IMG/VR virus record: IMGVR_UViG_3300028805_000004
From: an uncultured virus (IMG/VR IMGVR_UViG_3300028805_000004)
Taxonomy: Duplodnaviria; Heunggongvirae; Uroviricota; Caudoviricetes
Length of the DNA: 64,000 nucleotides
Reading direction: 5' to 3' (one strand)
Both the position numbers and the translations under genes were made by a program. How positions within the stretch are numbered: position 1 is the stretch's first letter; each line of letters opens with the position of its first letter. Under the pieces are notes generated by a model. That model saw nothing but the letters and a program-made list of their open reading frames with translations. It had not been told where the DNA came from and made no database searches. Positions 103 through 58,773 of this stretch are shown piece by piece.

Positions 103-132
103 CAAAAAAGTTCCCCCGGAGAAATATAAAGG

Positions 133-141: not shown

Positions 142-239
142 ATGCAAAAGGGGGGTATAAATATGAGGACCCCCCGGGGGTGTCAAAATATCCATATCAG
201 GGTATATTCTTATTGATATTAGATATGATATTTGACATT

Positions 240-4364: not shown

Positions 4365-4390
4365 TCCATATCTGCGAGGATTTGCGTGCG
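4365..4390 (-). promoter_or_regulatory. Variant copy of the phage promoter-like motif
   Basis: CGC-N7-TC-N8-TATGGA, same spacing as the 15 TAATGA copies; upstream of the nuclease/RNAP genes. Confidence 0.5.
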
Positions 4391-5613: not shown

Positions 5614-5723
5614 AAAAAATGCCAAAAATACCAAAAAACCACTCGTTTTATACTTTCTCCCTGAAAAAACATATACTTTTTCAGAAACTTTATGAAAAGT
5701 AAGTGGTTTTTTGGCATTTTTTT
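5614..5723. repeat. ~109-bp palindromic dispersed repeat, copy 1
   Basis: AAAAAATGCCAAAAATACC...AGTGGTTTTTTGGCATTTTTT; one C>A substitution relative to the other copies. Confidence 0.95.
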
Positions 5724-5731
5724 AAGAATTA

Positions 5732-11607: not shown

Positions 11608-11618
11608 AGTTTCTCCTT

Positions 11619-11727
11619 AAAAAATGCCAAAAATACCAAAAAACCACTCGTTTTCTACTTTCTCCCTGAAAAAACATATACTTTTTCAGAAACTTTATGA
11701 AAAGTAAGTGGTTTTTTGGCATTTTTT
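11619..11727. repeat. ~109-bp palindromic dispersed repeat, copy 2
   Basis: Core identical to copies 3-5. Confidence 0.95.
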
Positions 11728-11741
11728 AGGTATTATTAATA

Positions 11742-12611: not shown

Positions 12612-13546
12612 TTCACGCCTCCAAATTTCTCCTCGATATCTCTTGTGAATATCTTAAGGGTTTCTGCCGGCACCGGAAGCTTCTCCAGATGGACATAGTA
12701 ATCCGGCGCGGTCTTGCCATGTGTGATATCGATGCTGTTCGGGATCTGCTGGAGCGTTGCCACCATGGGGCTCGAGTCACCAGATGTGAACGGATATACC
12801 ATGTTCATGAACTGGACAACAGGCTTCACACCAAACAGATTGTAGAAATCATTAATACCGCAGAAGGCCCTGGAGTACTGGATCTGCTGGTTGAACCATG
12901 CTACATTGTTGGCAAATACAGATTCATTGCTCATACGATCATCATCGATGAAGCCTTCCATTCCGGAACCCCAGATAAAGTCGAAGCCATTGATGTCACC
13001 AGGCTCTACGGCCGGAGCATTCTCCATTTCCTCAGACACACCCTTTGCCTCGACAAGCTTCTTCTGATCCGCTGCCTCGTGCTCGGCTTTGAGGGCCAAA
13101 TATGCCGAAGACAGGTTTGCGATCCTCTCAAGAAGCATGCTGGTGCCTTTTGCGACGAAAGTCATGCCAACACCCCATAATATAATAGGAACCGCAAAAT
13201 GGCGGACAACCTTACCACCAATCTTGAGCACACACTGGGCATATGTCATCCGCAGGTCGTGGGCATAGGCCTTTTCGGCCTTCTCTGCAGAATATACGCC
13301 CTGGTTGATAACCTTTGTCTTCTGAGCTACGAGTCGTGCTTTCTCTTCCTGGAACTCGTCGAGATCGTCCTGAATAAGGTCGTCAAGTGACCGGGCCTTG
13401 AGGCAGGCCATAACTGTACCGGCAAGCATTGAACCAACACCCGCTGCGATCATGATTGTCGGACCATGCTTTACGCCTACGATCTTTGCAGTAGCAACCG
13501 CATTCTTTCCGGCATTTGCAGTAAAAGCTAACAGTTTATTGAACAT
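12608..13546 (-). CDS. Membrane-associated protein, paralogue family A (DUF6353-like)
   Basis: KHGPTIMIAAGVGSMLAGTVMA resembles KNKEPILMIAGTCFHAAGLAVA of 21415-22251. Confidence 0.7.
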   Translation of the reverse strand: MFNKLLAFTANAGKNAVATAKIVGVKHGPTIMIAAGVGSMLAGTVMACLKARSLDDLIQDDLDEFQEEKARLVAQKTKVINQGVYSAEKAEKAYAHDLRMTYAQCVLKIGGKVVRHFAVPIILWGVGMTFVAKGTSMLLERIANLSSAYLALKAEHEAADQKKLVEAKGVSEEMENAPAVEPGDINGFDFIWGSGMEGFIDDDRMSNESVFANNVAWFNQQIQYSRAFCGINDFYNLFGVKPVVQFMNMVYPFTSGDSSPMVATLQQIPNSIDITHGKTAPDYYVHLEKLPVPAETLKIFTRDIEEKFGGVK

Positions 13547-14603: not shown

Positions 14604-14670
14604 TTCATTTTCCTCCTTTATTTTTGGCCTGATTAACAGTTTCATTAAATGCCTCGAAAAATATCCGAGG

Positions 14671-15000
14671 TTAGAAGCAAGTCTCAGCGAGAGAATTTGC
14701 CATGATGGCAGAGGCCGCTTCTTCCTCTAAGTTAAGCGTATACTTTGGCATGGATACTGCAGCCTGTTTTGACGCAGCCATGGCATAAATATAAGCCAGA
14801 GCGGACATGGCTTCTTCCTCAGTATCGTGTGACGAAACGATAATCGGGTGAGGATCTCTGTTCCGCCCCTCAGAGAACGACACAACCACCCAGGGTTTGC
14901 AAGTGTTCTCCTCGTTATTTACAGACTGCTGCACAAATAACCGTGCGTGAGCAGTATCAAACATTGCCTTCTTATTCTGTGCCATTACCAGCATTTTCAT
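14671..15000 (-). CDS. Hypothetical protein, paralogue family B
   Basis: MLVMAQNKKAMFDT..SSHDTEEEA parallels MLIMNQNRDVLIDT..SEHEDLEEA of 15241-15552; start uncertain. Confidence 0.65.
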   Translation of the reverse strand: MKMLVMAQNKKAMFDTAHARLFVQQSVNNEENTCKPWVVVSFSEGRNRDPHPIIVSSHDTEEEAMSALAYIYAMAASKQAAVSMPKYTLNLEEEAASAIMANSLAETCF

Positions 15001-15238
15001 TTCCTCCACTAAGTTTTTCAGCTAACTCATCAGCAATTGCTATAAGCTCATTATTGAGATTATATAGCTCCTTGTTTACTTCTATAATTTCTTTGTTGAG
15101 GCGCTGCTGCTCAATAATTATAGAACGAAGTTCACGATTTTCAGTACGCAGATTCTGGTACAAAAGACCAACAATGAGCAAAAATATAGAAAGCAAACAA
15201 CAAGCAACGATGAGCCAAAATACATTTTTGTCATCCAT
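14972..15238 (-). CDS. Small membrane-anchored coiled-coil protein
   Basis: N-terminal TM plus heptad pattern. Confidence 0.65.
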   Translation of the reverse strand: MDDKNVFWLIVACCLLSIFLLIVGLLYQNLRTENRELRSIIIEQQRLNKEIIEVNKELYNLNNELIAIADELAEKLSGGNENAGNGTE

Positions 15239-15240
15239 TT

Positions 15241-15552
15241 TTACTTACCCTGTATCAATTTAAGCATCTTTCTGGTAGTAACAGTACGTAAGGTAGTCAA
15301 GGCTTCGTCTAAAATAGGCGTGTCTTTATCAAAATCCAAGGCGCCAATACCAAGACCAGCGGCCAAATGGATTACATCAACTACCTTTTTAGCCTCTTCG
15401 AGATCCTCATGTTCACTTATGGTAACTCTCATACCGCCGGTGTATCCACTAACACGATAACGATTAAGCTGTACTTCTTTGATTTCTTCGATCCTTATCA
15501 CAGCTCCGGTGGTATCGATCAACACGTCACGATTCTGGTTCATTATCAGCAT
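15241..15552 (-). CDS. Hypothetical protein, paralogue family B
   Basis: See 14671-15000; RBS present. Confidence 0.7.
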   Translation of the reverse strand: MLIMNQNRDVLIDTTGAVIRIEEIKEVQLNRYRVSGYTGGMRVTISEHEDLEEAKKVVDVIHLAAGLGIGALDFDKDTPILDEALTTLRTVTTRKMLKLIQGK

Positions 15553-15793
15553 AAATTACATCTCCTTTCTTCTTTTTGTGCTTCTTTTTAGTTCCTGTGC
15601 TAATGTCGGTTAACTGATCAACTATATACGAGATGTTTTTCGTGTAAGCTCCTATAGCCGGAACTATCAAATCATTGAGCGTCGATACCTCCGATTCAAG
15701 TTCGTTCAACTTATAGTTTGTCCTGCAAATACCGATCAGAACAAGTGTCTGCAAGATAATAACGAGTCCTAATAAAAAGTAAATCGCGATCAT
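15527..15793 (-). CDS. Small membrane-anchored protein
   Basis: N-terminal TM; start overlaps the upstream stop. Confidence 0.65.
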   Translation of the reverse strand: MIAIYFLLGLVIILQTLVLIGICRTNYKLNELESEVSTLNDLIVPAIGAYTKNISYIVDQLTDISTGTKKKHKKKKGDVIYADNEPES

Positions 15794-16077
15794 CTTTGCA
15801 CCCCCTTTTCATAATGATCCGTGCATTTCCTCGAGCAAGTCAGGCACGTTATGTCAGGTTTCTGATCATATTTACATCCCTCGCACGATCTTTTTGACGT
15901 GACATTTGTTATAATCAAGTAATCTCCATTAAGCGAACGCGACACTTCGTACAAACCGCTCTTCTTGAACATGACCGCGGCACACATGGACGGTGAAAAA
16001 CCAACATTATTTGTGCCAATACGGATCTGATCACCAACATCGACGACCTTGACTCCATTATAAATATACTCAGCCAT
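15790..16077 (-). CDS. Hypothetical protein with Cys cluster
   Basis: CEGCKY..CLTCSRKC; start moved to ATG 16077. Confidence 0.6.
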   Translation of the reverse strand: MAEYIYNGVKVVDVGDQIRIGTNNVGFSPSMCAAVMFKKSGLYEVSRSLNGDYLIITNVTSKRSCEGCKYDQKPDITCLTCSRKCTDHYEKGVQR

Positions 16078-16078
16078 A

Positions 16079-16741
16079 TTATTCATCCTCATCAATATCA
16101 CCACGAATTGTCAACGGAGATTCGCTGAAAGCCTTGCTAAAAGCCTCATCCGCACGTTCTATACTGTCCAAGATAGCTTTTGAAAACTGCTCACCAATTC
16201 TGACATACTTCCTGGATTCGGACTCGCTACTTCCCATCTTCTCGCCAAGTCTCTCCAGATTCCATCCATACCGCTGCCTGGTCCACTCACAGCAGAGAAT
16301 ATTCCAGATAAAGGCCCTGTCATGCGGTTCGTCTGTCCATCCAGCACGCCACTTACAGTAATGTCTCACCGCCGAATCAATATAGCGATCACACTGGATA
16401 CCTTTTTCCCAGTTGCGGTCACCATACTTCTTCGCACCTTCCTCGAAATGCTTAGCTACCTCGAGAACGAGCGAATATCGATAATTCCGGCGGTTCTCTT
16501 CGCTGAACTGCGGACCGTGCACCACTTTATGATACTCAGCAAACTTATTCAGAATATGAGCCATATCACCCGGAGTCTGTTCGTTACGATACAGATCGAT
16601 CATTTCAAATATAGGATCGACGAGCCAGTAGCCTATAACAGAGAGAGGCAGCAAATCACACCGCCCCTTGCCTTCCTGAATATCACGAACCGCACCGGAT
16701 TCAAATTTTGTTCTGTTTCCACTGTCTTTAATCATTTTCAT
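16079..16741 (-). CDS. dATP/dGTP diphosphohydrolase-like protein (DUF5664)
   Basis: FESGAVRD, GKGRCDLLP, GAKKYGDRNWEKG, SAVRH, EPH motifs. Confidence 0.75.
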   Translation of the reverse strand: MKMIKDSGNRTKFESGAVRDIQEGKGRCDLLPLSVIGYWLVDPIFEMIDLYRNEQTPGDMAHILNKFAEYHKVVHGPQFSEENRRNYRYSLVLEVAKHFEEGAKKYGDRNWEKGIQCDRYIDSAVRHYCKWRAGWTDEPHDRAFIWNILCCEWTRQRYGWNLERLGEKMGSSESESRKYVRIGEQFSKAILDSIERADEAFSKAFSESPLTIRGDIDEDE

Positions 16742-17015
16742 TTACCTCCTTCACAGCCCTGATCATCAAATGTCTTGTGCTAAGCTCATCGTCACTCTCA
16801 ACATAGTGAATCCGTTCAACGTAATAGCCTTCGAACATGTTAGGATTATCCTTGAGATGACTTGCAAATCCTTTCACATACACGTATTTACTATCGTACT
16901 CATTACGCTTCTCTAAACGTATCTCGAGCCACACATCATCGCCTTCATCACCTTCTATGTACGAAAGCTCGGTCAAGAGTTTAAGCGGCTCTCTATCATC
17001 CATTTTGTTTTTCAT
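16728..17015 (-). CDS. Hypothetical protein
   Basis: Start ATG 17015 after GGAGGT. Confidence 0.6.
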   Translation of the reverse strand: MKNKMDDREPLKLLTELSYIEGDEGDDVWLEIRLEKRNEYDSKYVYVKGFASHLKDNPNMFEGYYVERIHYVESDDELSTRHLMIRAVKEVNEND

Positions 17016-17355
17016 CTTCCACCTCCTTCTTTCCTTGAGCGTAGCCATCGTTATAACCAGCAGTATAACCATCAGCGTAACCTTTTTCATACTGCCGGCG
17101 GTCATATAGAAGAGCTTTTTTCAATTCACCTTTATCGATTTCTAGGCATAAAGCTTTCTCGCACGAAAGTTCTATGTAGTCGGTAATGATTTTCTCCTCG
17201 TTAGCCAGCTTTTTAGCGACAACTTCTTTAACATGTTCGGCAAGCGGTATATCACTACACGACATATAAGACTCATAAAACTGTTCCATTGCCTTTTTTC
17301 TCGCTTCAAGCCCTTCTTTCGAACCTACAAGAACGGTTATAGGAGATTCGTACAT
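16996..17355 (-). CDS. Hypothetical protein with GYxxG repeats
   Basis: LKKALLYDRRQYEKGYADGYTAGYNDGYAQG. Confidence 0.7.
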   Translation of the reverse strand: MYESPITVLVGSKEGLEARKKAMEQFYESYMSCSDIPLAEHVKEVVAKKLANEEKIITDYIELSCEKALCLEIDKGELKKALLYDRRQYEKGYADGYTAGYNDGYAQGKKEVEDEKQNG

Positions 17356-17362
17356 TTGATTT

Positions 17363-17758
17363 TTATTCCTCCTTTTCAGGCCATTTTACCTTAACATTAA
17401 CACGCTTCAATGGCTTACCCATATGTGCCCTAAGCTCGTTATAAGCATCTATGATGCAATATTCCAGCATCTTGTTACCAGGCGGCAGTAAACCTATGCA
17501 TCCATTTATCAACGGGTCCTGATCAATCATACGCCTATATCGAAGCATCCCTACAGAGGTGGTCATGACGATTTTCTGACTATACAACGTGGTGGATATA
17601 GACTGATCAAAATTAGCGATAAAGCCATAGTCGTCTTCAACTGTGAAAGAATATCCAACCAGTGTTCCGTCGTGCTTCACAATATTACTAACCTTAAGTG
17701 TTAGTGTTTTTGCAAAATTCACCGGATAAATGTCTGGAATACGAAGGTCATTGTCCAT
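17363..17758 (-). CDS. Hypothetical protein
   Basis: 131-aa ORF in a tightly packed operon. Confidence 0.65.
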   Translation of the reverse strand: MDNDLRIPDIYPVNFAKTLTLKVSNIVKHDGTLVGYSFTVEDDYGFIANFDQSISTTLYSQKIVMTTSVGMLRYRRMIDQDPLINGCIGLLPPGNKMLEYCIIDAYNELRAHMGKPLKRVNVKVKWPEKEE

Positions 17759-18491
17759 TTTCTTTCTCCATAAACTCCTTCATGTATGGAAGTTCCTTGA
17801 TCGCATCCACAAATACATGCCACTCGTCCAACTTATGGCCGGTTCTCTGGCGAATAATAGTCATCGCGGTCTCGTAGTTGAAGTCGAGCGTTCGCTTCTG
17901 GTTATACGAAGAGGGCAGAAGCTGGATCAGTTGCCACCAGTACCGTTTATCATTGGTTTTCAAATATAGAGCACGGCATAAGTTTAGCATGACAATCGTA
18001 CGTGACAGAACGCCTTCTGGGGTAGTCCACACCTCGTCGCCATCATGTGTAATAGTACGCACTACCGGAGCGTCTGGAATGGGCTGCTCTTCACCGGGTT
18101 TAAAACAGTCAAGAACCCCCATTAAATGCTCACAGCTGAAATCGTCCCACGTGAACTCTTTACTGTGGATCTTGTGCATCGTGCTACACGAGTTCGCAAC
18201 AGTCCCCACTTTATAGGTGTCGAACTCCTTCCACCAATAAAGCGGAGCGGTTACGTCCATCTGAACATGGATCATTCTCAGGAACTTACGATGCTCAGGT
18301 CCTGATTTACACAGCTTTTTTGCCAAGCTGAGATCGTTTGGACCAAGATTATAAACGACCATGAGTCCGGAATCATTTGAGTCCAGAATATACGAAGAAT
18401 CCTGTTTGTCCCAGGAGTTCATAGGGTTTCTCATCCCACGAATGGCACCTTCGAAACCGCCAACCCAAATATTCTCAATTTTGATACTCAT
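17748..18491 (-). CDS. Divergent ThyX-like (flavin-dependent thymidylate synthase fold) protein
   Basis: GPEHRKFLR, APLYWWKEFDTYK..NSCSTMH, LLPSSY..R, R.GHKLDEW; canonical RHR motif absent. Confidence 0.55.
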   Translation of the reverse strand: MSIKIENIWVGGFEGAIRGMRNPMNSWDKQDSSYILDSNDSGLMVVYNLGPNDLSLAKKLCKSGPEHRKFLRMIHVQMDVTAPLYWWKEFDTYKVGTVANSCSTMHKIHSKEFTWDDFSCEHLMGVLDCFKPGEEQPIPDAPVVRTITHDGDEVWTTPEGVLSRTIVMLNLCRALYLKTNDKRYWWQLIQLLPSSYNQKRTLDFNYETAMTIIRQRTGHKLDEWHVFVDAIKELPYMKEFMEKENGQ

Positions 18492-19003
18492 TTGGTCCTC
18501 CTCTTGCAATCAAGAACGATTGCCTTGTCGTTGTAGTCAGTGTTGATAGAGGCGATCTGAAGACTGCAGAACAGGTCGTCGATGCTCTTATATTCTTTTT
18601 TGATACGAGAGTAGTCTACTCCAGACATCCCAACCCGGATAAACTCCTTTGCATTCACGTCCATATCTCCGTACCAGAGATCGAGATACACATATGCATC
18701 CGGGTCGAGCTTTTTGAAGAAAGCATCGAGCTCACTTTCGGTTTCAACAACCGTTGGTTCTGCTTTGAGATAAATATCACAAAACGTCTCGAACCCCTGA
18801 CCCTTTGCAACTGTTCTATAGTCGCAGTGATCGACCTCTTTGTCCATGTTTACATCAATCCACGGCTTGTCGTCGGCATGGCCCCGAAGCATATCAGCGG
18901 GATATGCTCTCAGGAATAAGTGATCATATCCGCTCTCGGTGGCTTTATAAAGCTGAACTCTTACTTCCGAACCCAAGTCTCTTATTACATCCTTTACTTT
19001 CAT
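18488..19003 (-). CDS. Hypothetical protein
   Basis: Start ATG 19003 after AAGGAGG. Confidence 0.7.
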   Translation of the reverse strand: MKVKDVIRDLGSEVRVQLYKATESGYDHLFLRAYPADMLRGHADDKPWIDVNMDKEVDHCDYRTVAKGQGFETFCDIYLKAEPTVVETESELDAFFKKLDPDAYVYLDLWYGDMDVNAKEFIRVGMSGVDYSRIKKEYKSIDDLFCSLQIASINTDYNDKAIVLDCKRRTK

Positions 19004-19013
19004 TTTGTCCTCC

Positions 19014-19184
19014 TTAAAATATATCATCCTCAAACCACAGAAATCCCCAGCCTACGAGAAGAAAAAAAGCGAGCAACACTCGGTCACTCGCCTTCTCACC
19101 ACTGGGGTTAAACAACAGAACCAACAAACCAAGAGTTATGCCGATCGCAAAATATGACACGACCAACGCTGCTACGATCTCAAA
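19014..19184 (-). CDS. Small two-TM membrane protein
   Basis: Two hydrophobic helices; start uncertain. Confidence 0.55.
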   Translation of the reverse strand, partial: FEIVAALVVSYFAIGITLGLLVLLFNPSGEKASDRVLLAFFLLVGWGFLWFEDDIF

Positions 19185-19608
19185 CATTGCTACCACCACA
19201 AAATGCATTAAGAAATTCTCTTGTGGTGCAGATCACCTTATACGGTTTCCGGGCTGCATGACGATCACCGTTTTTGAAAATATCAGACACCTTGTTCTTG
19301 AGGTCAACTTCAACAAAGGTGTCTCCGGCCTTACCGTTAACTGCGTCTGCGCCCAGTCTGGTCCAGTTTCCGAGCGGCTTCATAAAAATACCGCGTTTCT
19401 GGAGGGCCTCTGAAACTCTGGAGAAGTCGCCAACCTTATCGATAGTCACAGCGATGACATCAACCTGATCCCTCTCAATAAGCCCCTGCTGCCGATCCTG
19501 GTAATCCAGGAATGAGTAAATATCAGCCACAGTGATTGGATCCATAGCCTGCTTTCCAGCTCTGAAGCAGTAGTTGCTCCAGGATTTTTTAAGTGAATTC
19601 CAGTCCAT
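19180..19608 (-). CDS. Hypothetical protein
   Basis: 142-aa ORF with RBS. Confidence 0.7.
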   Translation of the reverse strand: MDWNSLKKSWSNYCFRAGKQAMDPITVADIYSFLDYQDRQQGLIERDQVDVIAVTIDKVGDFSRVSEALQKRGIFMKPLGNWTRLGADAVNGKAGDTFVEVDLKNKVSDIFKNGDRHAARKPYKVICTTREFLNAFCGGSNV

Positions 19609-19610
19609 AT

Positions 19611-20264
19611 TTATTCTCCTTCCGAAATAGTGAGAAGCTCCTTGAGAGCCAGAACTTCAGTGTCGAGTACCGAGCATGCCAGGGTTGTAGGTGTCCAGGA
19701 ATTGTGCGGAACAACCTTACCCAGCTTCATGTCAGTTGACAGCTGAGTGATCTTGGAAATATCAGTGTTGATGCCATCCACAAGCGCTTCATGCCTGTCA
19801 ACAAGGGCCTGGTACTGGAAATCCTTTAAAAAGTTGTCAGCCGCCAACTTGTTGTTCTCCTGTCTAAGAGCCAGTCTTTCACGCTCTTTGACGTGATGCC
19901 GGGCCCTGTAACCCATAGCGGTCATGAAGGTACAGCCATAGGATGCCATCTGGAGCCAGAAAATATCCTTTCGCTCCTTGTCCATAAGCTGGTATTTGCG
20001 AACTGCATCCTTGAGACTGGATGTGTCAAAGATAACGCATGCCTCGAAGGTCCCCCATGCCAGATCAGAGATGACATCGCTCGGGGTCGGCATAGGTTCG
20101 GCAGACTTAACCCCAACAACGTTTCCGTCCGGATCAACGTCAAGGATCTTGGCTTCCTTCTTCGGATCAAGTCTTTCACTCTTTGCCAGGACCACGAGTT
20201 TAAGAATACCACCAGTCAGTGCAAATACTTCGGGTAATAATGATAATACGCCTCTAAGTAACAT
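19611..20264 (-). CDS. Hypothetical protein
   Basis: 217-aa ORF with AAGGAGG. Confidence 0.7.
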   Translation of the reverse strand: MLLRGVLSLLPEVFALTGGILKLVVLAKSERLDPKKEAKILDVDPDGNVVGVKSAEPMPTPSDVISDLAWGTFEACVIFDTSSLKDAVRKYQLMDKERKDIFWLQMASYGCTFMTAMGYRARHHVKERERLALRQENNKLAADNFLKDFQYQALVDRHEALVDGINTDISKITQLSTDMKLGKVVPHNSWTPTTLACSVLDTEVLALKELLTISEGE

Positions 20265-20330
20265 TTTTGTTTTCCTCCTTAAATTGAAAAATATAAAAGA
20301 GGAACCCCATTTGAGATTCCTCCATTGTTT

Positions 20331-20417
20331 TTAGCCGTTATCCTTGTTCTGCTTGATGAGTTTTAATAAACCCATCGTAACAAGCATAACACCGGCTACA
20401 ATCATGAATTCTGCCAT
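20331..20417 (-). CDS. 28-aa hydrophobic micropeptide MAEFMIVAGVMLVTMGLLKLIKQNKDNG (not in ORF track)
   Basis: Translated by hand; AAGGAGG RBS, promoter motif at 20451-20476, hairpin at 20288-20323. Confidence 0.7.
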   Translation of the reverse strand: MAEFMIVAGVMLVTMGLLKLIKQNKDNG

Positions 20418-20479
20418 TTCCGTTCCTCCTTTATATGAAATAAATTTGTTTCATTAAAAGGAAAGAAAAAAATGCTTGG

Positions 20480-21280
20480 TCATTTGGTTCCGTACTTTGC
20501 CATGAGCTCAGGGATTCTGAGATCAGTCTTTGCTGTAGACCAGTCAAGAATATACTTTATGCCGTTAAGTATAACCCAGTTGTATTTATAGAATCTGGCA
20601 AGTTCTTCTGATGTAACTTCTGTAGAGCCGAGCATCGCTTTTCTGAGCCGACGAAGACGATTTATCTCAACCTTCTTCATGTAAGGCGTGAGACATTTCC
20701 CAGCCATAAGTGGCTCAACCATCTCACAGTAGCGCTTAATGTCTTCAATCTCAGTATCTGTGAGAATTGGGAATTTCGGGTTTAAAATATCACGCATTCT
20801 CTGTTTCTTCAGAACTACCATGGTAAACTGGTTGTAAAAGACAGTTTCCAAAGTAGGAACGGCTGTGAGGATCATTTCCTTCAGCAACCTTAAAAGGGGA
20901 TCTGCAATAGGCCCAAATATAATGACATCACAGTTGGACTCCAGATCTAATAAAGTTTCCCATAACGGAGCCAACATTGATGCTTCATCTGCCGGATTGT
21001 TTTCTGAATCAATAAATCCCATAGCTAATGTAGCAAATGCCAAATCACGCCTAGTGGCAGAAGCAGCAGTCCGCAGACCGTCAAGATGCTCCTTAAGAGA
21101 ACTGCAGGTAATATGGTTGTGTTTTATTCTAACCGAGCTGTCATTGAGTTTCGCGCTCGCATACACAATATCTTTAAAGAAGTTATCAACGAGCATTCTT
21201 TCAGTTGATTCGTTGCATTCGTCTGCAATAATTGAAATTTCGACTCTATAGAGTCGGTCTGTGAATAATTCTTGATGCAT
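20480..21280 (-). CDS. Hypothetical protein
   Basis: 266 aa, AAGGAGG RBS, directly downstream of repeat copy 3. Confidence 0.75.
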   Translation of the reverse strand: MHQELFTDRLYRVEISIIADECNESTERMLVDNFFKDIVYASAKLNDSSVRIKHNHITCSSLKEHLDGLRTAASATRRDLAFATLAMGFIDSENNPADEASMLAPLWETLLDLESNCDVIIFGPIADPLLRLLKEMILTAVPTLETVFYNQFTMVVLKKQRMRDILNPKFPILTDTEIEDIKRYCEMVEPLMAGKCLTPYMKKVEINRLRRLRKAMLGSTEVTSEELARFYKYNWVILNGIKYILDWSTAKTDLRIPELMAKYGTK

Positions 21281-21304
21281 CTCTTAATCCTCCTTAAAAT
21301 TATG

Positions 21305-21413
21305 AAAAAATGCCAAAAATACCAAAAAACCACTCGTTTTCTACTTTCTCCCTGAAAAAACATATACTTTTTCAGAAACTTTATGAAAAGTAAGTGGTTT
21401 TTTGGCATTTTTT
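21305..21413. repeat. ~109-bp palindromic dispersed repeat, copy 3
   Basis: Core identical to copies 2, 4 and 5. Confidence 0.95.
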
Positions 21414-21414
21414 A

Positions 21415-22251
21415 TTATTCAAACCTATCGAAATCCTTACCTAAATATCTGGGTTCAATGCTCGGTGATACGATAATCAGGTCTCCGCCATACTTCTTCC
21501 TGATGTATTCCGGAGCCTCTTCAGGATACGAGAACCTCGGTTCAGGAAGATTGTCGTGCAGATACCCCATCTGATCATACGCCGGAATATCATCTCGCAG
21601 GCCCAGATACTCGAGAAGTGTATTGTGGCACACAGCATCTCTTGCAGGAACAAAGGACTTGCTTCCGTGAGGATAGACGTCATAATATAACTCGCGATAC
21701 TGGTCTTCGATCCACTTCTTTGAGGCCTTGAAAACCTGCTTAGTCTCCTTCTCCATGAAGAGATCGTTGCCATATCCGGTCTCGATGATCTGAGGAATAT
21801 CAGTCTCTTCTCGAGACTGGAAGTGTCTGGATACAGACTCATCCGCCGCCTTGTCCTGAATCTTTGCATACGTCTCAGGACCTACAACCTTACGGGTTGC
21901 TTCCTGGAAAGAATCCTTGTTGTCAGCAAGAACCGCTGCAGTTGCAGCCATTGAGGACAGGCTTGCCAGCGTGATCTTACGTGCTCTCCAGTGACAGAAT
22001 TCCCCGGCTGCAAAGAGCAGAAGAATCGGACCACCGTCAAATATCAGGTCTCCAACAACCTGGCGATGATCGATGTCGATACCATTTTCCTTGGCTGACT
22101 TTACATCTGCCATTGTATCCAGCAGCTTCGGACCATTTATAACGGCTACTGCCAGGCCCGCTGCGTGGAAACATGTTCCGGCGATCATAAGGATCGGTTC
22201 CTTGTTTTTAGATACGACATTTGCGAGTTTACTGAGTAACTTAAGCTTCAT
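21415..22251 (-). CDS. Membrane-associated protein, paralogue family A (DUF6353-like)
   Basis: Start ATG 22251 after AAGGAGG; similar to 11742-12611 and 12608-13546. Confidence 0.72.
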   Translation of the reverse strand: MKLKLLSKLANVVSKNKEPILMIAGTCFHAAGLAVAVINGPKLLDTMADVKSAKENGIDIDHRQVVGDLIFDGGPILLLFAAGEFCHWRARKITLASLSSMAATAAVLADNKDSFQEATRKVVGPETYAKIQDKAADESVSRHFQSREETDIPQIIETGYGNDLFMEKETKQVFKASKKWIEDQYRELYYDVYPHGSKSFVPARDAVCHNTLLEYLGLRDDIPAYDQMGYLHDNLPEPRFSYPEEAPEYIRKKYGGDLIIVSPSIEPRYLGKDFDRFE

Positions 22252-22313
22252 TGTTTGCCTCCTTTGAAAAAATATAAGAGGAACCTTTTTCAAGATTCCT
22301 CTCAATTGACTTG

Positions 22314-22496
22314 TTACTTGCTAAGCAGGAGCTTTAACAGCTCATTTGTTTTCCGCTGCTCATCGAGGAGCAAGTCAATAGACTTCTGCAGATCGTTAGA
22401 TGCCATGACATTGTCGTCATGCATATGCTTGACTTCTGTCAGGACCTTCTCAATCCGTGTGTCTACCTTTTTCTCGATATCAGCTGTTCCAAACAT
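22314..22496 (-). CDS. Small coiled-coil protein (cassette gene)
   Basis: Own promoter motif, RBS and hairpin. Confidence 0.75.
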   Translation of the reverse strand: MFGTADIEKKVDTRIEKVLTEVKHMHDDNVMASNDLQKSIDLLLDEQRKTNELLKLLLSK

Positions 22497-22591
22497 AATA
22501 ATACCTCCTTAAAAAGTTTTATAGTCATTAAAAGACAAGAAAAAAATCCGAAAAATAAAAGACAGTTTTACGACATGTCTAGGTCGAACCA

Positions 22592-22744
22592 TTACTTCAA
22601 CTCTCTCGTGAAGTCAAAGTAAGGGATTTTCAAAGTTACGTCAGCCAGCCAGGTCGCTATGCATACGATAATAACCGTTCCGGTCATATACCATGCTACA
22701 AAGCGAACCGCAGGGTTGAACAGAAATTTTTTGATAATTCCCAT
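22592..22744 (-). CDS. 50-aa membrane peptide MGIIKKFLFNPAVRFVAWYMTGTVIIVCIATWLADVTLKIPYFDFTRELK (not in ORF track)
   Basis: Translated by hand; AAGGAGG RBS, promoter motif at 22778, hairpin at 22551-22586. Confidence 0.75.
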   Translation of the reverse strand: MGIIKKFLFNPAVRFVAWYMTGTVIIVCIATWLADVTLKIPYFDFTRELK

Positions 22745-22794
22745 ACTTTTAATCCTCCTTAAAAATTAAAGTGTTTTTCATTAAGAAGGTAGAA

Positions 22795-22913
22795 AAATAT
22801 AAGAAAAGAACTATCGGGCTTTTAACCCGAGTCTCCGATTCTATTCGAATCAGCGTGCTGCGAGTTACCGCGCTTACACCATTTGTTGGTGTTAATTCAA
22901 CCTCATTCTTTTC
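22795..22913 (-). ncRNA. tRNA-like structured small RNA (cassette 2)
   Basis: Promoter motif at 22914-22939, no RBS-led ORF; closing stem AGAAAAGAA/TTCTTTTCT encloses four hairpins including T-arm-like TCGGG-TTAAAAG-CCCGA. Confidence 0.6.
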
Positions 22914-22981
22914 TCATTAACAGAATGGATTTGAACGCGAAAAATATAAGAGAGGTTCCTTGTGAGAACCCCTCAATGAAC

Positions 22982-23362
22982 TTACTTCGTCAGACCCATG
23001 TCTCTCAAAATGTCATACCGAGTTTCTCCGGTCCCATTCGACTTGGCCTCCTTGAGGCGATCGTTGTATTCCGCGTCTTCCTTGGGCGACAGCGGTCGCT
23101 TGATGTGAATGTGCTTCCCCAATTCAGGATCCCAGACTTCTCGATCTGCATTATGCCCATCAATTGCTTTGGCTGCGAGTGTGATACCCGAGCCAAGAAT
23201 CGTGAACACGCCTGCAGCAATCTCGACACCCAGGGCCGGATTGTCTTTACATAACGCATAAAGCTTCTTCCCCCTGTCGATACACCAGGCTTTCGCCTCT
23301 TTAGCCTTTTTCTTGGCCTTATCGAGGACCGTTTCCTTCTTATAAATCTCAATCTTCGCCAT
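22982..23362 (-). CDS. Membrane-anchored hypothetical protein (cassette gene)
   Basis: Central hydrophobic segment; own promoter, RBS and hairpin. Confidence 0.78.
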   Translation of the reverse strand: MAKIEIYKKETVLDKAKKKAKEAKAWCIDRGKKLYALCKDNPALGVEIAAGVFTILGSGITLAAKAIDGHNADREVWDPELGKHIHIKRPLSPKEDAEYNDRLKEAKSNGTGETRYDILRDMGLTK

Positions 23363-23456
23363 TTTATACCTCCTTTTCTAATAGGCGACTAATAAGTTTC
23401 ATTAAAAGCATCGAAAAATATAAGAGAGGTTCCTTGTGAGAACCCCTCTCGGTGAA

Positions 23457-23960
23457 TCATTTCTTCACAGGCACGTTATGTGTTTTGTGCTTATATCGCT
23501 GACGTGACGCATTGGTGCGGATGATAATGTCCTCATCCTTCTCCATTTTCGCGCTTGTGTCGAACTCATACGCCTGTTCTTCCAAGCCAAGACGATTGTC
23601 TCTCGAGTTAGACAACACTGCAAGTCCAATTCCTGCAAGAGAACCAACGACACCAACAACAGCTCCCATGAACCCCCAGAACGTCCCAGACTTGTGCTGT
23701 TCATCCTTCTGCTTTCTGTCAGCCTCTGCCTGCGTGGCTTCTGCGTCAAGATGTGCAGCCTCGATGTCAGCTCTAGCCTGGCGGTCAAGATCCGCATCAT
23801 GTGCTCTCTGCTGGCGGTCGGCCTCTGCGATCTTCTCCTGCAACAACTCTTTTTCGAGAGCCGTTAAGGCTTTCAACTTTTCAGGCGATGGATCGTTAGC
23901 GTAGTCGTTCCGTGCTACCTGCACCACGTCTTCGAGTGATACAAAATTTTCTTCGTTCAT
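23457..23960 (-). CDS. Coiled-coil membrane protein (cassette gene)
   Basis: ADRQ/ADRK repeats and a Gly-rich TM; own promoter, RBS and hairpin. Confidence 0.78.
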   Translation of the reverse strand: MNEENFVSLEDVVQVARNDYANDPSPEKLKALTALEKELLQEKIAEADRQQRAHDADLDRQARADIEAAHLDAEATQAEADRKQKDEQHKSGTFWGFMGAVVGVVGSLAGIGLAVLSNSRDNRLGLEEQAYEFDTSAKMEKDEDIIIRTNASRQRYKHKTHNVPVKK

Positions 23961-24048
23961 ATTGTACCTCCTTTGTGAAATATAATAGATTCATTAACAT
24001 CGGCGAAAAAAATAAGAGGAACCTTTTTCAAGATTCCTCATTGCTTTA

Positions 24049-24288
24049 TTACTTATCGTTCATGGCGAAGACCATCGCCCTCACCACGAAACATATCGGC
24101 CAACTGATGAATATCATCAGCCTTGTGATCAACATCGACAGATAAAATGTCTTTTTATTGACTTTCATCTCTAATGCCCAATCACAGGCATTACGATACC
24201 CACCGGTAATGCTGATATATCTCATAGTGTTGAGATAACCTGTATACCATACAGCGATCATCAGTAATACAACAAATCCTTCTAACAT
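24049..24288 (-). CDS. Two-TM membrane protein (cassette gene)
   Basis: Start moved to ATG 24288 after AGGAGG; promoter motif at 24320. Confidence 0.72.
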   Translation of the reverse strand: MLEGFVVLLMIAVWYTGYLNTMRYISITGGYRNACDWALEMKVNKKTFYLSMLITRLMIFISWPICFVVRAMVFAMNDK

Positions 24289-24337
24289 AATGATACCTCC
24301 TATTTTGTGAAATATAGTTTCATTAAGAGGATGGATT

Positions 24338-24601
24338 TCAGTGCGAGTCGCACATTCGATACTTGCATACGCATGTGAAATGATTACCCCTAACACGCGA
24401 ACTTCCAGGATTAAAACGGCCAGCAAGTACTAAATGGTCGCCAAACATGTCCTTTTTGAAATATTCCGAGACAAAGTTGATGTCTCCGGACACTTGCTTA
24501 ATGCACGGCACAGAATCATCCAGAGTGTTTTTGTAAACACAAACGTTAGCATACGTGTAGTCTTTTTGTGCCTCTTCAAGATACTGAGTCAGAGTTTTCA
24601 T
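24338..24601 (-). CDS. Hypothetical protein
   Basis: AAGGAGG RBS; 87 aa. Confidence 0.65.
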   Translation of the reverse strand: MKTLTQYLEEAQKDYTYANVCVYKNTLDDSVPCIKQVSGDINFVSEYFKKDMFGDHLVLAGRFNPGSSRVRGNHFTCVCKYRMCDSH

Positions 24602-25022
24602 TGTTGTCCTCCTTCACCATAAGCTTCAAATATAAGTAGTTGTATACTTCTCTCATGTACTCATACATCTTGTTCTTCGAGAAGTGGTTCTTCATCAGTT
24701 CCTTGTTATAGCCCATGCCCCGTGCTACAGCTTGGAAAATATAAACCATGGCATCATAACGCTCAGTGTGGTTCTTCATAACCTGGAACACAGCATCATG
24801 AAGCAGCCATTTGTTATACTCGATCTTCTCCTTATAGATCAAAATCATCTCTTCCTCAGATTTTTTCTCTGAGGTAAGTGTTGGAACCAGAGACAACGCA
24901 AGCCTCTGTGGAATATAAGTGCTGGGTTCTTTAAGCCACGCTTCCCAATCAGGATAGCATCTGCACCAAGCCCTGATATACTTAAGGCTTTCTTTGTCTG
25001 GTTTCAGTCTTTCTTTCTTCAT
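24576..25022 (-). CDS. Hypothetical protein, possibly an ArpU/RinA-like regulator
   Basis: Helical, with a possible C-terminal HTH-like segment; function weakly supported. Confidence 0.55.
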   Translation of the reverse strand: MKKERLKPDKESLKYIRAWCRCYPDWEAWLKEPSTYIPQRLALSLVPTLTSEKKSEEEMILIYKEKIEYNKWLLHDAVFQVMKNHTERYDAMVYIFQAVARGMGYNKELMKNHFSKNKMYEYMREVYNYLYLKLMVKEDNNENSDSVS

Positions 25023-25086
25023 TTTTGTCCTCCTTTGCAAAAAAAAAAGAACCCAGGAATTTCACCTGGGCTCAAAATGAAGATCA

Positions 25087-25314
25087 TTACTTCTTGATAT
25101 CATCCATAAGATGTGACATCATACGGAGAGTCACGTCCATCTTCTCACCGACCGCAGCTGCGTATTTCTCCACCAGGAACTTTCCTAAGCGTTCCCCAGC
25201 CGGAGATTCCTGCAGCTCTTTATCGGACTTGAAGTAGTTCAAAACTTCCTCAAATGCCTCACATCTGATTTCAAGCTCAATGTCCTTCATTTTCAACTCG
25301 ATATTGTTTCTCAT
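25087..25314 (-). CDS. Hypothetical protein (cassette gene)
   Basis: Start ATG 25314 after AAGGAGG; promoter motif at 25347. Confidence 0.72.
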   Translation of the reverse strand: MRNNIELKMKDIELEIRCEAFEEVLNYFKSDKELQESPAGERLGKFLVEKYAAAVGEKMDVTLRMMSHLMDDIKK

Positions 25315-25390
25315 TTTAATCCTCCTTTTGTGATGAGATAACAGTTTCATTAAGACCATAAAAGTTTATGCGAAAAAAGAAAAGCCCAGA

Positions 25391-25624
25391 TTAAATCTGA
25401 GCCTTCTTGTCAAATAGTACCTTATAAACTACGTACGGCCATAGAATCCCTATGACAATACTTGCGAGCGCATTTAAGGTCGATGGTGTTGCATTAATCC
25501 TTTCTGACCACTCTTCCGTTCTTTCCGGAGAGGGGTCAGGTGTAAAATACACCATCAAACCAATCAGTACACCCGCAACGATGTAGATCATAGCGAGTAT
25601 GTCCATAACAACAAAAACATTCAT
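25391..25624 (-). CDS. Two-TM membrane protein (cassette gene)
   Basis: Promoter motif at 25647; stop lies in the terminator loop. Confidence 0.75.
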   Translation of the reverse strand: MNVFVVMDILAMIYIVAGVLIGLMVYFTPDPSPERTEEWSERINATPSTLNALASIVIGILWPYVVYKVLFDKKAQI

Positions 25625-25690
25625 AATGATACCTCCTTTTTGTTTTTCATTAAATCCCCAAAAATTTATGCGAAAAAGAAAAAGCCCAGA

Positions 25691-25846
25691 TTATTTCTGA
25701 GCTTTCTTCTTTTCTACATTCTTTTCTTTATTTGTCTCTTTGTTCTTTTGCCAATCTTCCAAATTAGTCCGTACGATGTCAATGGCGGTCCCCATTACGA
25801 GTGCCTTTGCAAAACGTCCTTTTTGTGTTAATCTGCAATTATACAT
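25691..25846 (-). CDS. 51-aa basic peptide MYNCRLTQKGRFAKALVMGTAIDIVRTNLEDWQKNKETNKEKNVEKKKAQK (not in ORF track)
   Basis: Translated by hand; AAGGAGG RBS, promoter motif at 25880, stop in the hairpin loop. Confidence 0.7.
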   Translation of the reverse strand: MYNCRLTQKGRFAKALVMGTAIDIVRTNLEDWQKNKETNKEKNVEKKKAQK

Positions 25847-25955
25847 AATACAATCCTCCTTTTAATAAGAATATAGTTTTCATTATCATCCTTGTTTTCC
25901 ACGCGAATGGCAAAAATAAAAAGACAGTTTTACGACATGTCTAGGTCAAACGTAG

Positions 25956-26222
25956 TCACAGGATTTCGAGAGGTTTCCCCTCGTTCCTGAAACTCATTTT
26001 TGATTTCAGAATCCCGTATCTCACGGGGTCCGTCACAAGGGTGTACCTTGTTCCCTGACGCGTCGGAGCATTATCGAACCCGATCCTGTATTTCATTTGA
26101 TCTACTTTTTCAGTGATCTTAATGCCCAGGTCGGACATAATCTCCTCAGCTTCAGACTGTCTACCCTCAGCAACGAACACCCGTTTAACGGGATTGACCG
26201 TGTTAATAAGTTTCTTTAACAT
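25956..26222 (-). CDS. Hypothetical protein (cassette gene)
   Basis: Promoter motif at 26263, RBS, hairpin at 25912-25947. Confidence 0.75.
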   Translation of the reverse strand: MLKKLINTVNPVKRVFVAEGRQSEAEEIMSDLGIKITEKVDQMKYRIGFDNAPTRQGTRYTLVTDPVRYGILKSKMSFRNEGKPLEIL

Positions 26223-26340
26223 TTGTAAATCCTCCTTTATGAATATAAACTGTGTTTACGTTTCATTAACAAAGGAGAAGTTTCTGCGCAAAAAAAAAGA
26301 AAAGCCCAGAATTAACTGAGCTTATCTTTAAGTTCCCCAA

Positions 26341-26694
26341 TTATCTATCAGGGAACTCACCTTTTACTTCCTTGAATCCTGCTTCCAGATACACCTGCTC
26401 TAATATGGTGTTTCGGGTCAAGATTACGTCAGCTGCATACCAGTCACCGTACCAGCCAAGTCTGTTAGTCCATACCGGCGGGCAAGTATAGCACCCTGTG
26501 AGTTCCTTGTATCTATAGCCCAACCTAACCTGGATATATTTTCTATCCCTAGATGTGTTAGGCTTATGATACCCTGACTCCCTGAAGGGGCCATCCTCGC
26601 TTACAGAATAGACCTTCCTCGCAATATACTGGCGAGAGGTAGGTTTTTTGTAAAACTCGTCCCTAGTCATTGTGCTTCTTCCATAGTTAGTCAT
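26341..26694 (-). CDS. Hypothetical protein (cassette gene)
   Basis: Promoter motif at 26738, RBS, hairpin at 26289-26321. Confidence 0.75.
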   Translation of the reverse strand: MTNYGRSTMTRDEFYKKPTSRQYIARKVYSVSEDGPFRESGYHKPNTSRDRKYIQVRLGYRYKELTGCYTCPPVWTNRLGWYGDWYAADVILTRNTILEQVYLEAGFKEVKGEFPDR

Positions 26695-26786
26695 GATAAT
26701 ACCTCCTAATAAAAATAGTTAATGTGATTCTAAGTTATCATTAAGAACGTAGAAAAAAAAGCGCAAAAAAGAAAAGCCCTGATTTC

Positions 26787-27059
26787 TCAGAGCTCTACTT
26801 CCTCTTCTGGTGGATCACACACGGTAATCGCGCCATCAGGGGCCAACAAGAAGTATTTCCCAGTAGTCTCTAACTCGTAGAGACCATCCGGGTCCGGTTC
26901 AGCATGCATGCGCCCGATACCAAGTCCGCTTCTAGTTCTTCTAACGAACTTAGCTTCACACACGCATCCGAACACGACCTTTCCAGTCTCGTCGTGTCGA
27001 ACTACTATAATGTTATCCTCGTCGGCCGCGTGATAGCGGCACCATTCACTAACTGTCAT
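26787..27059 (-). CDS. Hypothetical protein (cassette gene)
   Basis: Promoter motif at 27084, RBS, hairpin at 26765-26794. Confidence 0.75.
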   Translation of the reverse strand: MTVSEWCRYHAADEDNIIVVRHDETGKVVFGCVCEAKFVRRTRSGLGIGRMHAEPDPDGLYELETTGKYFLLAPDGAITVCDPPEEEVEL

Positions 27060-27110
27060 AGTGATACCTCCTTATAAAGTTTTTCATTATCATCCAAGAA
27101 GAAATAGCGA

Positions 27111-27199
27111 AAAAATAAAACCAAGGATTGCCCTGCGGACTCGAACCGCAATCTCTTTAAAGTGTTTTCCCAATTAAACTAGTGTTAACAATCTTAGTT
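27111..27199 (-). ncRNA. tRNA-like small RNA lacking a normal anticodon arm (cassette 1)
   Basis: D-arm TAGTTT-AATTGGGA-AAAC, stub CTTTAAAG, T-arm TGCGG-TTCGAGT-CCGCA, closing stem plus U-tract; promoter motif at 27200-27225. Confidence 0.7.
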
Positions 27200-27231
27200 T
27201 CATTATCATCCTTGTTTTCCACGCGAAGGGC

Positions 27232-39788: not shown

Positions 39789-39805
39789 TTGATTCCCTCA
39801 CGTAT

Positions 39806-39915
39806 AAAAAATGCCAAAAATACCAAAAAACCACTCGTTTTCTACTTTCTCCCTGAAAAAACATATACTTTTTCAGAAACTTTATGAAAAGTAAGTGGTT
39901 TTTTGGCATTTTTTT
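39806..39915. repeat. ~109-bp palindromic dispersed repeat, copy 4
   Basis: Between tape measure and Dit genes. Confidence 0.95.
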
Positions 39916-39926
39916 ATTATTATAAG

Positions 39927-48331: not shown

Positions 48332-48356
48332 TGTGGTCTCTCCTTTTAATTTTGTG

Positions 48357-58766: not shown

Positions 58767-58773
58767 AAGCACC

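Follow-up and report, generated by a model that had tools for sequence, protein, structure and literature searches.

The 64,000-nt stretch analysed here (the window) is a complete 1706/ReqiPepy6/Oengus-like siphovirus genome. It encodes on the minus strand, at 613-3399, an intact single-chain two-barrel RNA polymerase (RNAP) of 928 aa, which matches phrog_4291 at 1037 bits. Fifteen copies of an intergenic element, all on the minus strand, are made up by a TAATGA hexamer, a triplet 17 nt upstream (CGC in 9 copies, CTT in 3, CGG in 2, AGC in 1), and a spacer dinucleotide, TC in 11 copies. A variant at 4365-4390 (CGC/TC, hexamer TATGGA) heads the nuclease-exonuclease-RNAP operon, with an RBS and an ATG at 4314, and brings the TC count to 12/16. 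Copy number, triplets and TC counts agree with those of the initial annotation.

Copies are given below with the first base of the minus-strand hexamer in brackets. The copy at 27200-27225 (27205) is CGC/AC, the family-ancestral spacer, scores 23.9 with the family matrix, lies just downstream of a terminator (27273-27238), and is followed by an ORF-less, tRNA-like stretch. The second CGC/AC copy is at 25880-25905 (25885; ATG 25846; score 23.6). CGC/TC copies reside at 27084-27109 (27089; RBS and ATG 27059), 26738-26763 (26743; ATG 26694, terminator 26796-26773), 26263-26288 (26268; ATG 26222, terminator 26323-26302), 24320-24345 (24325) and 22914-22939 (22919; terminator 22974-22950), the last followed by an ORF-less structured stretch at 22910-22800 (fold z -3.66). 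CGC/TT copies are found at 25647-25672 (25652; ATG 25624, terminator 25707-25679) and 25347-25372 (25352; ATG 25314, terminator 25406-25380). The remaining copies all have a TC spacer and feature CTT at 23991-24016 (23996; ATG 23960), 23399-23424 (23404; ATG 23362) and 22778-22803 (22783; ATG 22744, terminator 22830-22814), CGG at 22525-22550 (22530; ATG 22496), AGC at 20451-20476 (20456; ATG 20417), and again CGG at 14642-14667 (14647; ATG 14608; score 12.9), the last copy before the replication genes. An RBS lies 9-30 nt downstream of 13 of the 15 copies, and a called terminator adjoins 10. According to the initial annotation, triplet variants may tune strength or timing. Since the triplet overlaps the end of the called terminator stem in two of the three CTT copies (terminators 24039-24016 and 23450-23422), CTT may have arisen by overwriting, not by tuning. 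Nothing was found at threshold by Rfam and ARAGORN over the window; in ReqiPepy6, one copy ends 6 nt ahead of an annotated tRNA.

CGC-N17-TAATGA occurs 9 times on the whole minus strand, against a mean of 0.23 (maximum 2) in 100 shuffles, and is missing from the plus strand. The distance from CG[CG] to TAATGA peaks at 17 (11 matches), with at most 3 matches at every other spacing from 12 to 23. Over the whole genome, TAATGA by itself shows no enrichment (33 vs. 25.9 expected), and of the 19 TAATGA in the region, 4 stand outside the motif. Its location upstream of nearly every cassette, as initially annotated, holds true for 22.5-27.2 kb (13 copies), not for 14.6-22.3 kb, where only two copies reside, and several genes behind terminators have no copy at all. 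The conserved spacer base is C (13/15 copies); AC is the norm in the family, and was retained by two copies in the window. Some copies have flanking blocks in common, and are partly non-independent. A matrix made from 189 sites of 38 relatives, window excluded, ranked 14 of the 15 copies among the top 15 matches on the 64-kb minus strand, and 10 outscored the best plus-strand match. The variant at 4365-4390 is by score alone not above chance (6.6 vs. 6.1 for the best plus-strand match), but it lies 991 nt upstream of the RNAP start, where a family-wide copy is located, syntenic at 750-1250 nt upstream of RNAP in 45 of 144 related loci.

The RNAP features an N-terminal HTH-HTH-winged helix region and a C-terminal HTH. 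No solved structure matched it by sequence. Its structure model (pLDDT 81.2) matches QDE-1 (Foldseek E 4.2e-9; Z 12.7, rmsd 4.5 over 374 residues), and structures of the gp64 type rank among its best fold matches. Relatives among viral contigs were missed by a single-protein scan, and found by alignment. The three aspartates of the catalytic motif DFDGD (residues 520-524, 1828-1842, minus strand) are invariant in 80/80 aligned family members, as are R266, K276, R474 and P476, and K299 is found in 79/80. HTH2 (residues 87-105, 3085-3141, minus strand) scores 24.8 bits against Pfam Sigma70_r4_2, below the cut-off of 25.7, and matches DeoR, LsrR, sigma-4 and NarL folds alike (all Z 7-8.6), so that by fold match it is indistinguishable as a true sigma-4 domain from other HTHs. 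DUF7211 is weakly similar to the N-terminus of two of the four RNAPs tried (E 0.019 and 0.026), with no similarity for the window RNAP. The orthologue in phage 1706, orf75, carries the depositors' label 'structural protein' (EU081845). No informative look-alike was found for the small gene which follows RNAP.

The element, as CGC-N8-C-N8-TAATGA or lineage variants, was found in 46/46 RNAP-bearing family genomes, scanned with a matrix seeded from those very genomes, and the co-occurrence of motif and RNAP, proposed in the initial annotation as a check, holds in all of them. Sites number 4-28 per genome, 515 on the RNAP strand and 6 on the opposite one. Named carriers infect Gordonia, Rhodococcus, Arthrobacter, Streptomyces and Lactococcus. 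Temperate members were suspected to have one copy only; this was ruled out, as their hexamer is TTATG(A/G), and their sites number 4-28. As this hexamer follows one RNAP clade (16/17 rows), the residues best correlated with the hexamer only mark ancestry, and residue-base correlation tied no RNAP residue convincingly to hexamer variants. Searches with RNAP, primase-polymerase and capsid (250, 253 and 244 records, in equal counts for named host genera) found no RNAP-less relatives that could be used as negative controls. Of 34 matches to the local variant in five host genomes (21.6 Mb), 29 reside in prophages, on the RNAP strand, and 5 outside, vs. 4 for a reversed control. In 26 genomes, 63 of 111 matches are on RNAP-bearing contigs, the other 48 comparing with 53 in controls. 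In host chromosomes the element is thus confined to prophages, and at chance level elsewhere.

The triplet tracks the recognition helix of HTH2, bases 1, 2 and 3 covarying with E98, R102 and S99, respectively. Polymerase classes, here given by residues 98-102, were compared with triplets counted by a triplet-blind scan. Of the 575 sites that go with the [ED]-S-x-x-R class (61 genomes), 451 have CGC and 14 CGT; of the 68 that go with the E-G-x-x-R class (8 genomes), 47 have CGT and 4 CGC. Among genomes with at least 4 sites, CGT leads in 5/5 of the latter and 0/50 of the former class. The prediction was set down before held-out E-G polymerases were looked at, and of the 23 sites there, 17 had CGT and none had CGC. 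Several lineages separately pair S99G with CGT in place of CGC: on a FastTree tree of RNAP residues 221-880, E-G requires 6 changes, at least 3 of which are forced by well-supported branches. When all well-filled alignment columns were scanned (59 genomes), the top columns for bases 1, 2 and 3 were E98, R102 and S99. Where E98 is lost, the first C is lost too (A-S-x-x-R, 0/7 sites starting with C), and where R102 is lost, so is the G (CAC in W-S-x-x-K, TAC in I-S-x-x-E, 0/6 sites with G in Q-S-x-x-E).

The three correlations differ in strength. Against the maximum of 30 label shuffles, which ignore kinship, r is 0.79 vs. 0.68 for S99, 0.70 vs. 0.70 for R102, and 0.60 vs. 0.63 for E98; when each is judged by itself, S99 alone stands clearly above the shuffles. 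Variants of R102 and of E98 each come from one or two lineages and few sites; V-S-x-x-A is represented by a single site, and in S-S-x-x-R G is kept in only 5 of 10 sites. Exceptions are phage 1706, in which CAC leads (6/14 sites) in spite of E-S-x-x-R, a genome with E-S-G-x-R and no preferred triplet (G027c22), and an E-G one which is mixed (G027c24; CGT 4 and CGC 3 of 12). The window RNAP is E-S-V-x-R, yet 6 of its 15 copies are non-CGC.

RNA contigs were taken from one sheep-gut library. Of the six early-region contigs of run X1 listed, five stop 12-19 nt downstream of the hexamer, at the copies in 26738-26763 (15 nt), 26263-26288 (12 nt), 24320-24345 (13 nt), 23991-24016 (14 nt) and 23399-23424 (19 nt). 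As these are assembled contigs from one sample (among the matches listed, 16 of 45 RNA pieces), their ends cannot show starts, and are a weak hint only that transcription begins there. Two RNA contigs, one each from X1 and X2, run across a motif; X3 and X4 probably represent related-strain DNA. No comparable late promoter was found downstream of RNAP (9 sense vs. 3 antisense matches in 597 kb from 68 loci, partly host DNA), so that the element would not account for late transcription. A window match at 38595 falls within a tail gene, and was dismissed as fortuitous.

We believe that the phage RNAP very probably uses the element as an early/middle promoter, and reads it with an HTH of its own. 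The initial proposal of a cognate promoter of the 928-aa protein, not used by host sigma-70, gains support from the co-occurrence with RNAP, the confinement to prophages, the lack of -12T/-11A in 15/15 window copies, and the covariation of triplet and HTH. That host sigma-A holoenzyme uses a TATAAT-like -10, alone or with a phage protein at the CGC box, is unlikely, although much in the family resembles it: TA occupies -12/-11 in 300 of 515 sites, T occupies -7 in 503, CGC falls at about -30 in that register, and copies in Gordonia phages have been called sigma-70 promoters (PMC9671010, PMC10868162). Window copies do not follow the pattern. TA at -12/-11 is found in none of the 15 (-11A in 3), and when TAATGA is taken as the -10, position -7 is A in all; neither register has a TTGACA-like -35 hexamer, and neither a sigma-A -35 at 16-18 nt nor an extended -10 TG was found. 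One of the 15 copies coincides with a match of a sigma-70 consensus scan. The annotated lack of a TTGACA/TATAAT fit in register is thus correct. The pair -12T/-11A is found in 0/12 sites of G017 and 2/18 of G034, and the chance level of the element in host DNA outside prophages also argues against host use. 'Non-sigma70' is to be qualified, as the sigma-A-like TA of so many sites makes dual use by the host enzyme possible in many relatives. T4 middle promoters combine a MotA box with a sigma-70 -10, and the RNAP-like protein might similarly act as an activator through its HTH; activation as its sole role is less parsimonious, because the covarying protein keeps all catalytic aspartates in 80/80 sequences.

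Covariation points to likely binding, not to initiation, and the RNAP could bind the element as an operator, loading or roadblock site, silencing host read-through or keeping the prophage quiet, with true promoters elsewhere, for example late. YonO, the sole characterised relative, transcribes late genes (PMC5467207), and the late region of this family is devoid of the element. Such a role is very unlikely given the strict orientation on a single strand, the location between terminator and RBS, and, more weakly, the RNA contig ends just downstream; moreover, sigma-70 promoters of the region are no better than chance (38 consensus-scan matches vs. 29.6 +/- 5.6 expected). Flanking blocks and terminators shared by some window copies might also suggest just a recombination scar, or a common cassette border multiplied by duplication, and no function in transcription. 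This we regard as most improbable, the element keeping its spacing while the filler varies, in phages whose RNAPs are about 45% identical, being syntenic as a single copy before the RNAP operon, and covarying with RNAP residues.

The original ReqiPepy6/Poco6 paper reportedly describes promoter-bearing 'genome expansion modules', and may show this motif. The intergenic motif of the Gordonia cluster DJ phages Vardy and Conley is the same element (PMC9671010, PMC10868162). Five copies of a 50-bp MEME motif are reported for Vardy (PMC9671010), whereas CGC-N17-TAATGA is found 8 times without mismatch in this genome, between small genes of the central region. In the available text of both announcements the motif is read as a sigma-70 TATAAT promoter, and not linked to an RNAP; window copies, in contrast, lack TATAAT. 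What is added here is the residue-base covariation, the motif itself being already known from these two announcements. The 928-aa protein belongs to the putative RNAP family of 1706 orf75 and Oengus (phrog_4291; PMC2919709, bioRxiv 10.1101/842583), found in the candidate family 'Sisseviridae' (PMC9723715, PMC10159846). A DxDGD motif, and HTH domains at either end, have been noted already (10.1101/842583), in a text from which the word 'promoter' is absent, and the 1706 protein was classed as YonO-like (PMC2919709). The accessible parts of PMC2919709, 10.1101/842583, PMC9723715 and PMC10159846 mention no activity, promoter or specificity residues for the family; neither 'promoter' nor 'motif' occurs in PMC5513430, 10.1101/2022.11.23.517428 and PMC12859696. 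No paper was found in the published literature assigning the element to the RNAP, or giving a residue-base code for it.

YonO of the Bacillus phage SP-beta is likewise a single-chain two-barrel DNA-dependent RNAP of similar size, but serves late genes from one start, whereas the window element has many copies, at early/middle genes, and is absent late; its promoter sequence and need for other factors are left open in the sections available (PMC5467207). Phage-specific motifs upstream of starts that are assigned to single-chain two-barrel RNAPs are described for gp96/gp64 of the Thermus phage P23-45 (10.1101/2022.12.01.518664, as far as accessible); the window has one enzyme, known here from sequence alone. 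The 17-nt spacing of triplet and hexamer, the upstream element read by an HTH, and the A/T-rich downstream element recall sigma-70 -35/-10 and T4 MotA-type promoters. Unlike these, window copies have no TTGACA, no -12T/-11A and an extra conserved spacer C, and the HTH is within the polymerase chain, and resembles DeoR, LsrR and NarL as much as sigma region 4.

The proposed promoter consists of triplet (CGC), spacer C and hexamer (TAATGA), about one helical turn apart. The recognition helix of HTH2 would bind the triplet, E98 contacting the first C, R102 the G, and S99 the last C; as HTH2 would itself bind the triplet, no sigma factor would be needed for this contact. DNA would probably open at the A/T-rich hexamer, with the start a few bases downstream. 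Copies head terminator-promoter-RBS-small gene cassettes, small RNAs, the replication block and the RNAP operon, and since both early cassettes and the RNAP operon are so headed, enzyme delivered in the virion could start the cycle, and then amplify its own production. Motif and distribution, RNAP fold, conserved catalytic residues and residue-base covariation are observed; promoter activity, direct contact, melting site, start position, and virion packaging in this phage are what we infer. On balance, it seems probable that in a large phage family of gut, rumen, soil and dairy a one-chain RNAP related to the cellular polymerase reads sigma-70-spaced promoters via a built-in HTH, by a residue-to-base code in which E98 pairs with C, R102 with G, S99 with C, and S99G with T.

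How single-chain two-barrel RNAPs find promoters without sigma is the question which, in the parts available, was left open for YonO (PMC5467207), and the covariation of triplet and HTH residues points to how such enzymes may find genes. For a predicted polymerase family, this defines a promoter, nominates a recognition helix and yields point predictions (S99G: CGC to CGT). If this is true, the published sigma-70 reading of the Gordonia phage motif would be corrected, and early genes and small RNAs could be marked across a phage family which 80% of infants are reported to carry (PMC10159846). Enzymes and promoters that naturally pair through differing triplets could be orthogonal expression systems in Gram-positive bacteria, and the family would hold a two-barrel polymerase which needs no sigma, can be retargeted, and has orthogonal promoter variants in nature.

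The virus record spanned by the window measures 63.9 kb, and all the genes identified are minus-strand genes. From 63957 to about 27500 these are lysin, head and tail genes; small-gene cassettes come next, and then genes for a primase-polymerase, a helicase, nucleases and a 928-aa protein (613-3399), a predicted single-chain RNA polymerase (RNAP) matching phrog_4291. Full-length relatives of this protein were found in 250 phage records, among them those of 1706, ReqiPepy6, Mudcat, Rima and the Gordonia cluster DJ phages, and the family has already been predicted as RNAP in the accessible portions of PMC2919709 and bioRxiv 10.1101/842583. The folds nearest to its structure model (pLDDT 81.2) are QDE-1 and the Thermus phage gp64-type RNAPs; the catalytic aspartates are unchanged in 80 of 80 sequences, and fold comparison places two helix-turn-helices (HTHs) and a winged helix in the N-terminal part. 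A small 87-aa gene (240-503, minus strand; phrog_4303) immediately follows, and a gene sits at the same position in five of the five named relatives; its product is a candidate RNAP partner, for which a look-alike search gave nothing informative. The region is present in public runs labelled sheep gut and bovine gut. The stretch separating the last gene from the lysin gene contains a conserved cos-like region (about 130-185, minus strand); of the 19 related loci that match its core, most are arranged likewise.

As the initial annotation had counted, 15 minus-strand copies of the element, a triplet set 17 nt ahead of the hexamer TAATGA, lie in 14642..27225; the triplet is CGC in 9, CGG in 2, AGC in 1 and CTT in 3. 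The TC reported in the spacer is likewise present in 12 of 16 copies, a variant at 4365-4390 included. The minus strand has nine occurrences of CGC-N17-TAATGA where 0.23 are expected, the plus strand none; 17 is the sole spacing peak between triplet and hexamer in the window. TAATGA on its own shows no genome-wide enrichment (33 occurrences vs. 25.9 expected). An RBS is found 9-30 nt 3' of the element in 13 of the 15 copies. Ten directly adjoin a called intrinsic terminator at their 5' side, and the T-run preceding CGC is thus often a terminator tail. ORF-less stretches lie behind two of the 15 copies. One (27195-27120, minus strand) has a tRNA-like T-arm, received no ARAGORN call and folds no better than shuffles; the other (22910-22800, minus strand) has a fold z of -3.66. 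Both are candidate small RNAs.

A long hairpin of ~112 bp is present in five near-identical intergenic copies (5614-5724, 11618-11737, 21303-21414, 39805-39916, 48355-48475), all in the same orientation (fold z -7.2). It has no Rfam match at threshold and no real match among the related loci compared; related-strain contigs diverge at the edge of the 21303 copy, and the hairpin is possibly a small mobile element. Three phrog_2152 paralogues, two also matching DUF6353, reside at 11742-13546 and 21415-22305 (minus strand), in the early/middle region.

The element was traced in 28-50 kb each from five named phages and from another 40 sequences, long contigs or prophages picked by length out of 160 loci. 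Exact CGC-N17-TAATGA copies number 8 in Vardy, 14 in ReqiPepy6, 4 in Mudcat and 5 in Rima; phage 1706 features the form CAC...TAGTAG. A family matrix made from 189 sites in 38 of these sequences, the window left out, placed 14 of the window's 15 copies among the top 15 minus-strand matches, 10 of them exceeding the best plus-strand score. A softened matrix, seeded from the same 46-sequence set and controlled by the opposite strand, detected sites in every sequence, 4-28 in each; over all 46 the RNAP strand has 515 and the opposite strand 6. The core common to the family is triplet-N8-C-N8-hexamer; the spacer dinucleotide is usually AC, the TC of the window being a local form. Strict copies at 750-1250 nt upstream of the RNAP were seen in 45 of 144 loci, with none on the opposite strand in the same bins, and they lend support to the variant at 4365-4390, which is marginal on score alone. 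In a Clostridia prophage clade (G001, G002, G003, G005, G047) most copies have a TTATG(A/G) hexamer. At about 18-25 kb upstream of the RNAP, G001, G002, G005 and G047 carry an additional copy with TAATG(A/G), possibly under different regulation.

The element is real, and very probably of the phage-polymerase promoter kind. According to a published reading of the Gordonia phage motif, host sigma-70 would read it: a genome announcement (PMC9671010) describes the motif as a sigma-70 promoter, as does the available text of a second (PMC10868162), and 300 of the 515 family sites do contain the -12T/-11A pair. The pair is found in none of the window's copies, in agreement with the non-sigma70 character originally assigned to them, and host DNA also argues against this reading. 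Across five host genomes the local variant gave 34 matches; 29 fall inside prophages, and the five outside are about as many as the controls (4). A set of 26 genomes gave 111 matches, 63 of them on RNAP-bearing contigs and 48 on other contigs, the latter number being close to controls (53). RNAP-less relatives, sought as a control by RNAP, primase-polymerase and capsid, were not found.

In the first 46 genomes, changes in the triplet coincide with changes in the recognition helix of the second HTH of the RNAP (HTH2, residues 87-105). When the triplet columns were masked from the matrix before scoring, enzymes with [ED]-S-x-x-R at residues 98-102 were paired with CGC, E-G-x-x-R with CGT, W-S-x-x-K with CAC, and I-S-x-x-E with TAC. 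Predictions for held-out phages were written before their sequences were fetched. E-G enzymes had CGT at 17 of 23 sites and CGC at none, as predicted; one of these phages (G039c24) is closely related to a training phage, another (G025c66) is not, and groups with CGC phages in a well-supported clade. With A-S-x-x-R the first C is gone in 7/7 sites and G retained in 6/7; G is absent in 6/6 Q-S-x-x-E sites, and retained in only 5/10 with S-S-x-x-R. The single V-S-x-x-A site reads AAC. On a tree of residues 221-880 the E-G state requires six changes, at least three of them forced. Over the 79 phages scanned in all, [ED]-S-x-x-R enzymes have CGC at 451 and CGT at 14 of 575 sites, E-G enzymes CGT at 47 and CGC at 4 of 68. 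Among all well-filled columns (59 genomes with at least 4 sites), E98, R102 and S99, all within one helix, best predict triplet bases 1, 2 and 3 in that order; S99 alone clearly beats 30 label shuffles, which ignore kinship. Exceptions are 1706, with E-S-x-x-R and CAC in 6 of 14 sites, G027c22, with no preferred triplet, and G027c24, which is mixed. HTH proteins generally contact bases through the first turns of their recognition helix. Pairing of glutamate with cytosine and of arginine with guanine is chemically reasonable, and so is glycine leaving room for a thymine methyl. From the sequences we infer that E98, R102 and S99 may directly contact the triplet.

The co-occurrence of element and RNAP in 46 of 46 sequences, the confinement to prophages and the triplet-HTH2 covariation uphold the earlier proposal that this is the cognate, predicted promoter of the phage enzyme. 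Very probably, HTH2 of this enzyme would bind the triplet, further domains would contact the spacer C and the hexamer, and transcription would start a few bases 3' of the latter. One copy in ReqiPepy6 stops 6 nt short of an annotated tRNA, which bounds the start position if that copy is the promoter of the tRNA. In one RNA library, five of six listed early-region contigs end 12-19 nt past a hexamer, two of them past CTT copies, and two RNA contigs run across an element; one of 12 listed pieces from probable DNA runs ends within 25 nt. These ends hint at a start there, assembled contigs from one sample being unable to show starts.

Since the RNAP gene sits behind its own copy of the element, the first RNAP molecules would have to be delivered by the virion or produced through transcription by the host. 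In the database record of 1706, the orthologous protein carries the label 'structural'. A DUF7211 tag is found in three head-region proteins (1, 4 and 1 copies; 53253-58817, minus strand), and a similar L-x-H-Y-G motif at the RNAP N-terminus (3340-3399, minus strand) is a possible capsid-loading signal. The 1343-aa protein with four tags (54190-58221, minus strand) also has a C-terminal papain-fold toxin-like domain (PF15644, E 2e-7), and is possibly injected cargo.

The late region has no copies of the element, which therefore does not account for late transcription. In contrast, YonO is a proven late-gene enzyme, its promoter being left open in the accessible text of PMC5467207. Motifs were mapped for two enzymes of Thermus phage P23-45, according to the available part of bioRxiv 10.1101/2022.12.01.518664. 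A literature search, with the original ReqiPepy6 and 1706 papers outside it, found the motif nowhere assigned to the RNAP and no specificity residues. The proposed recognition code relating HTH2 residues to the triplet is directly testable.
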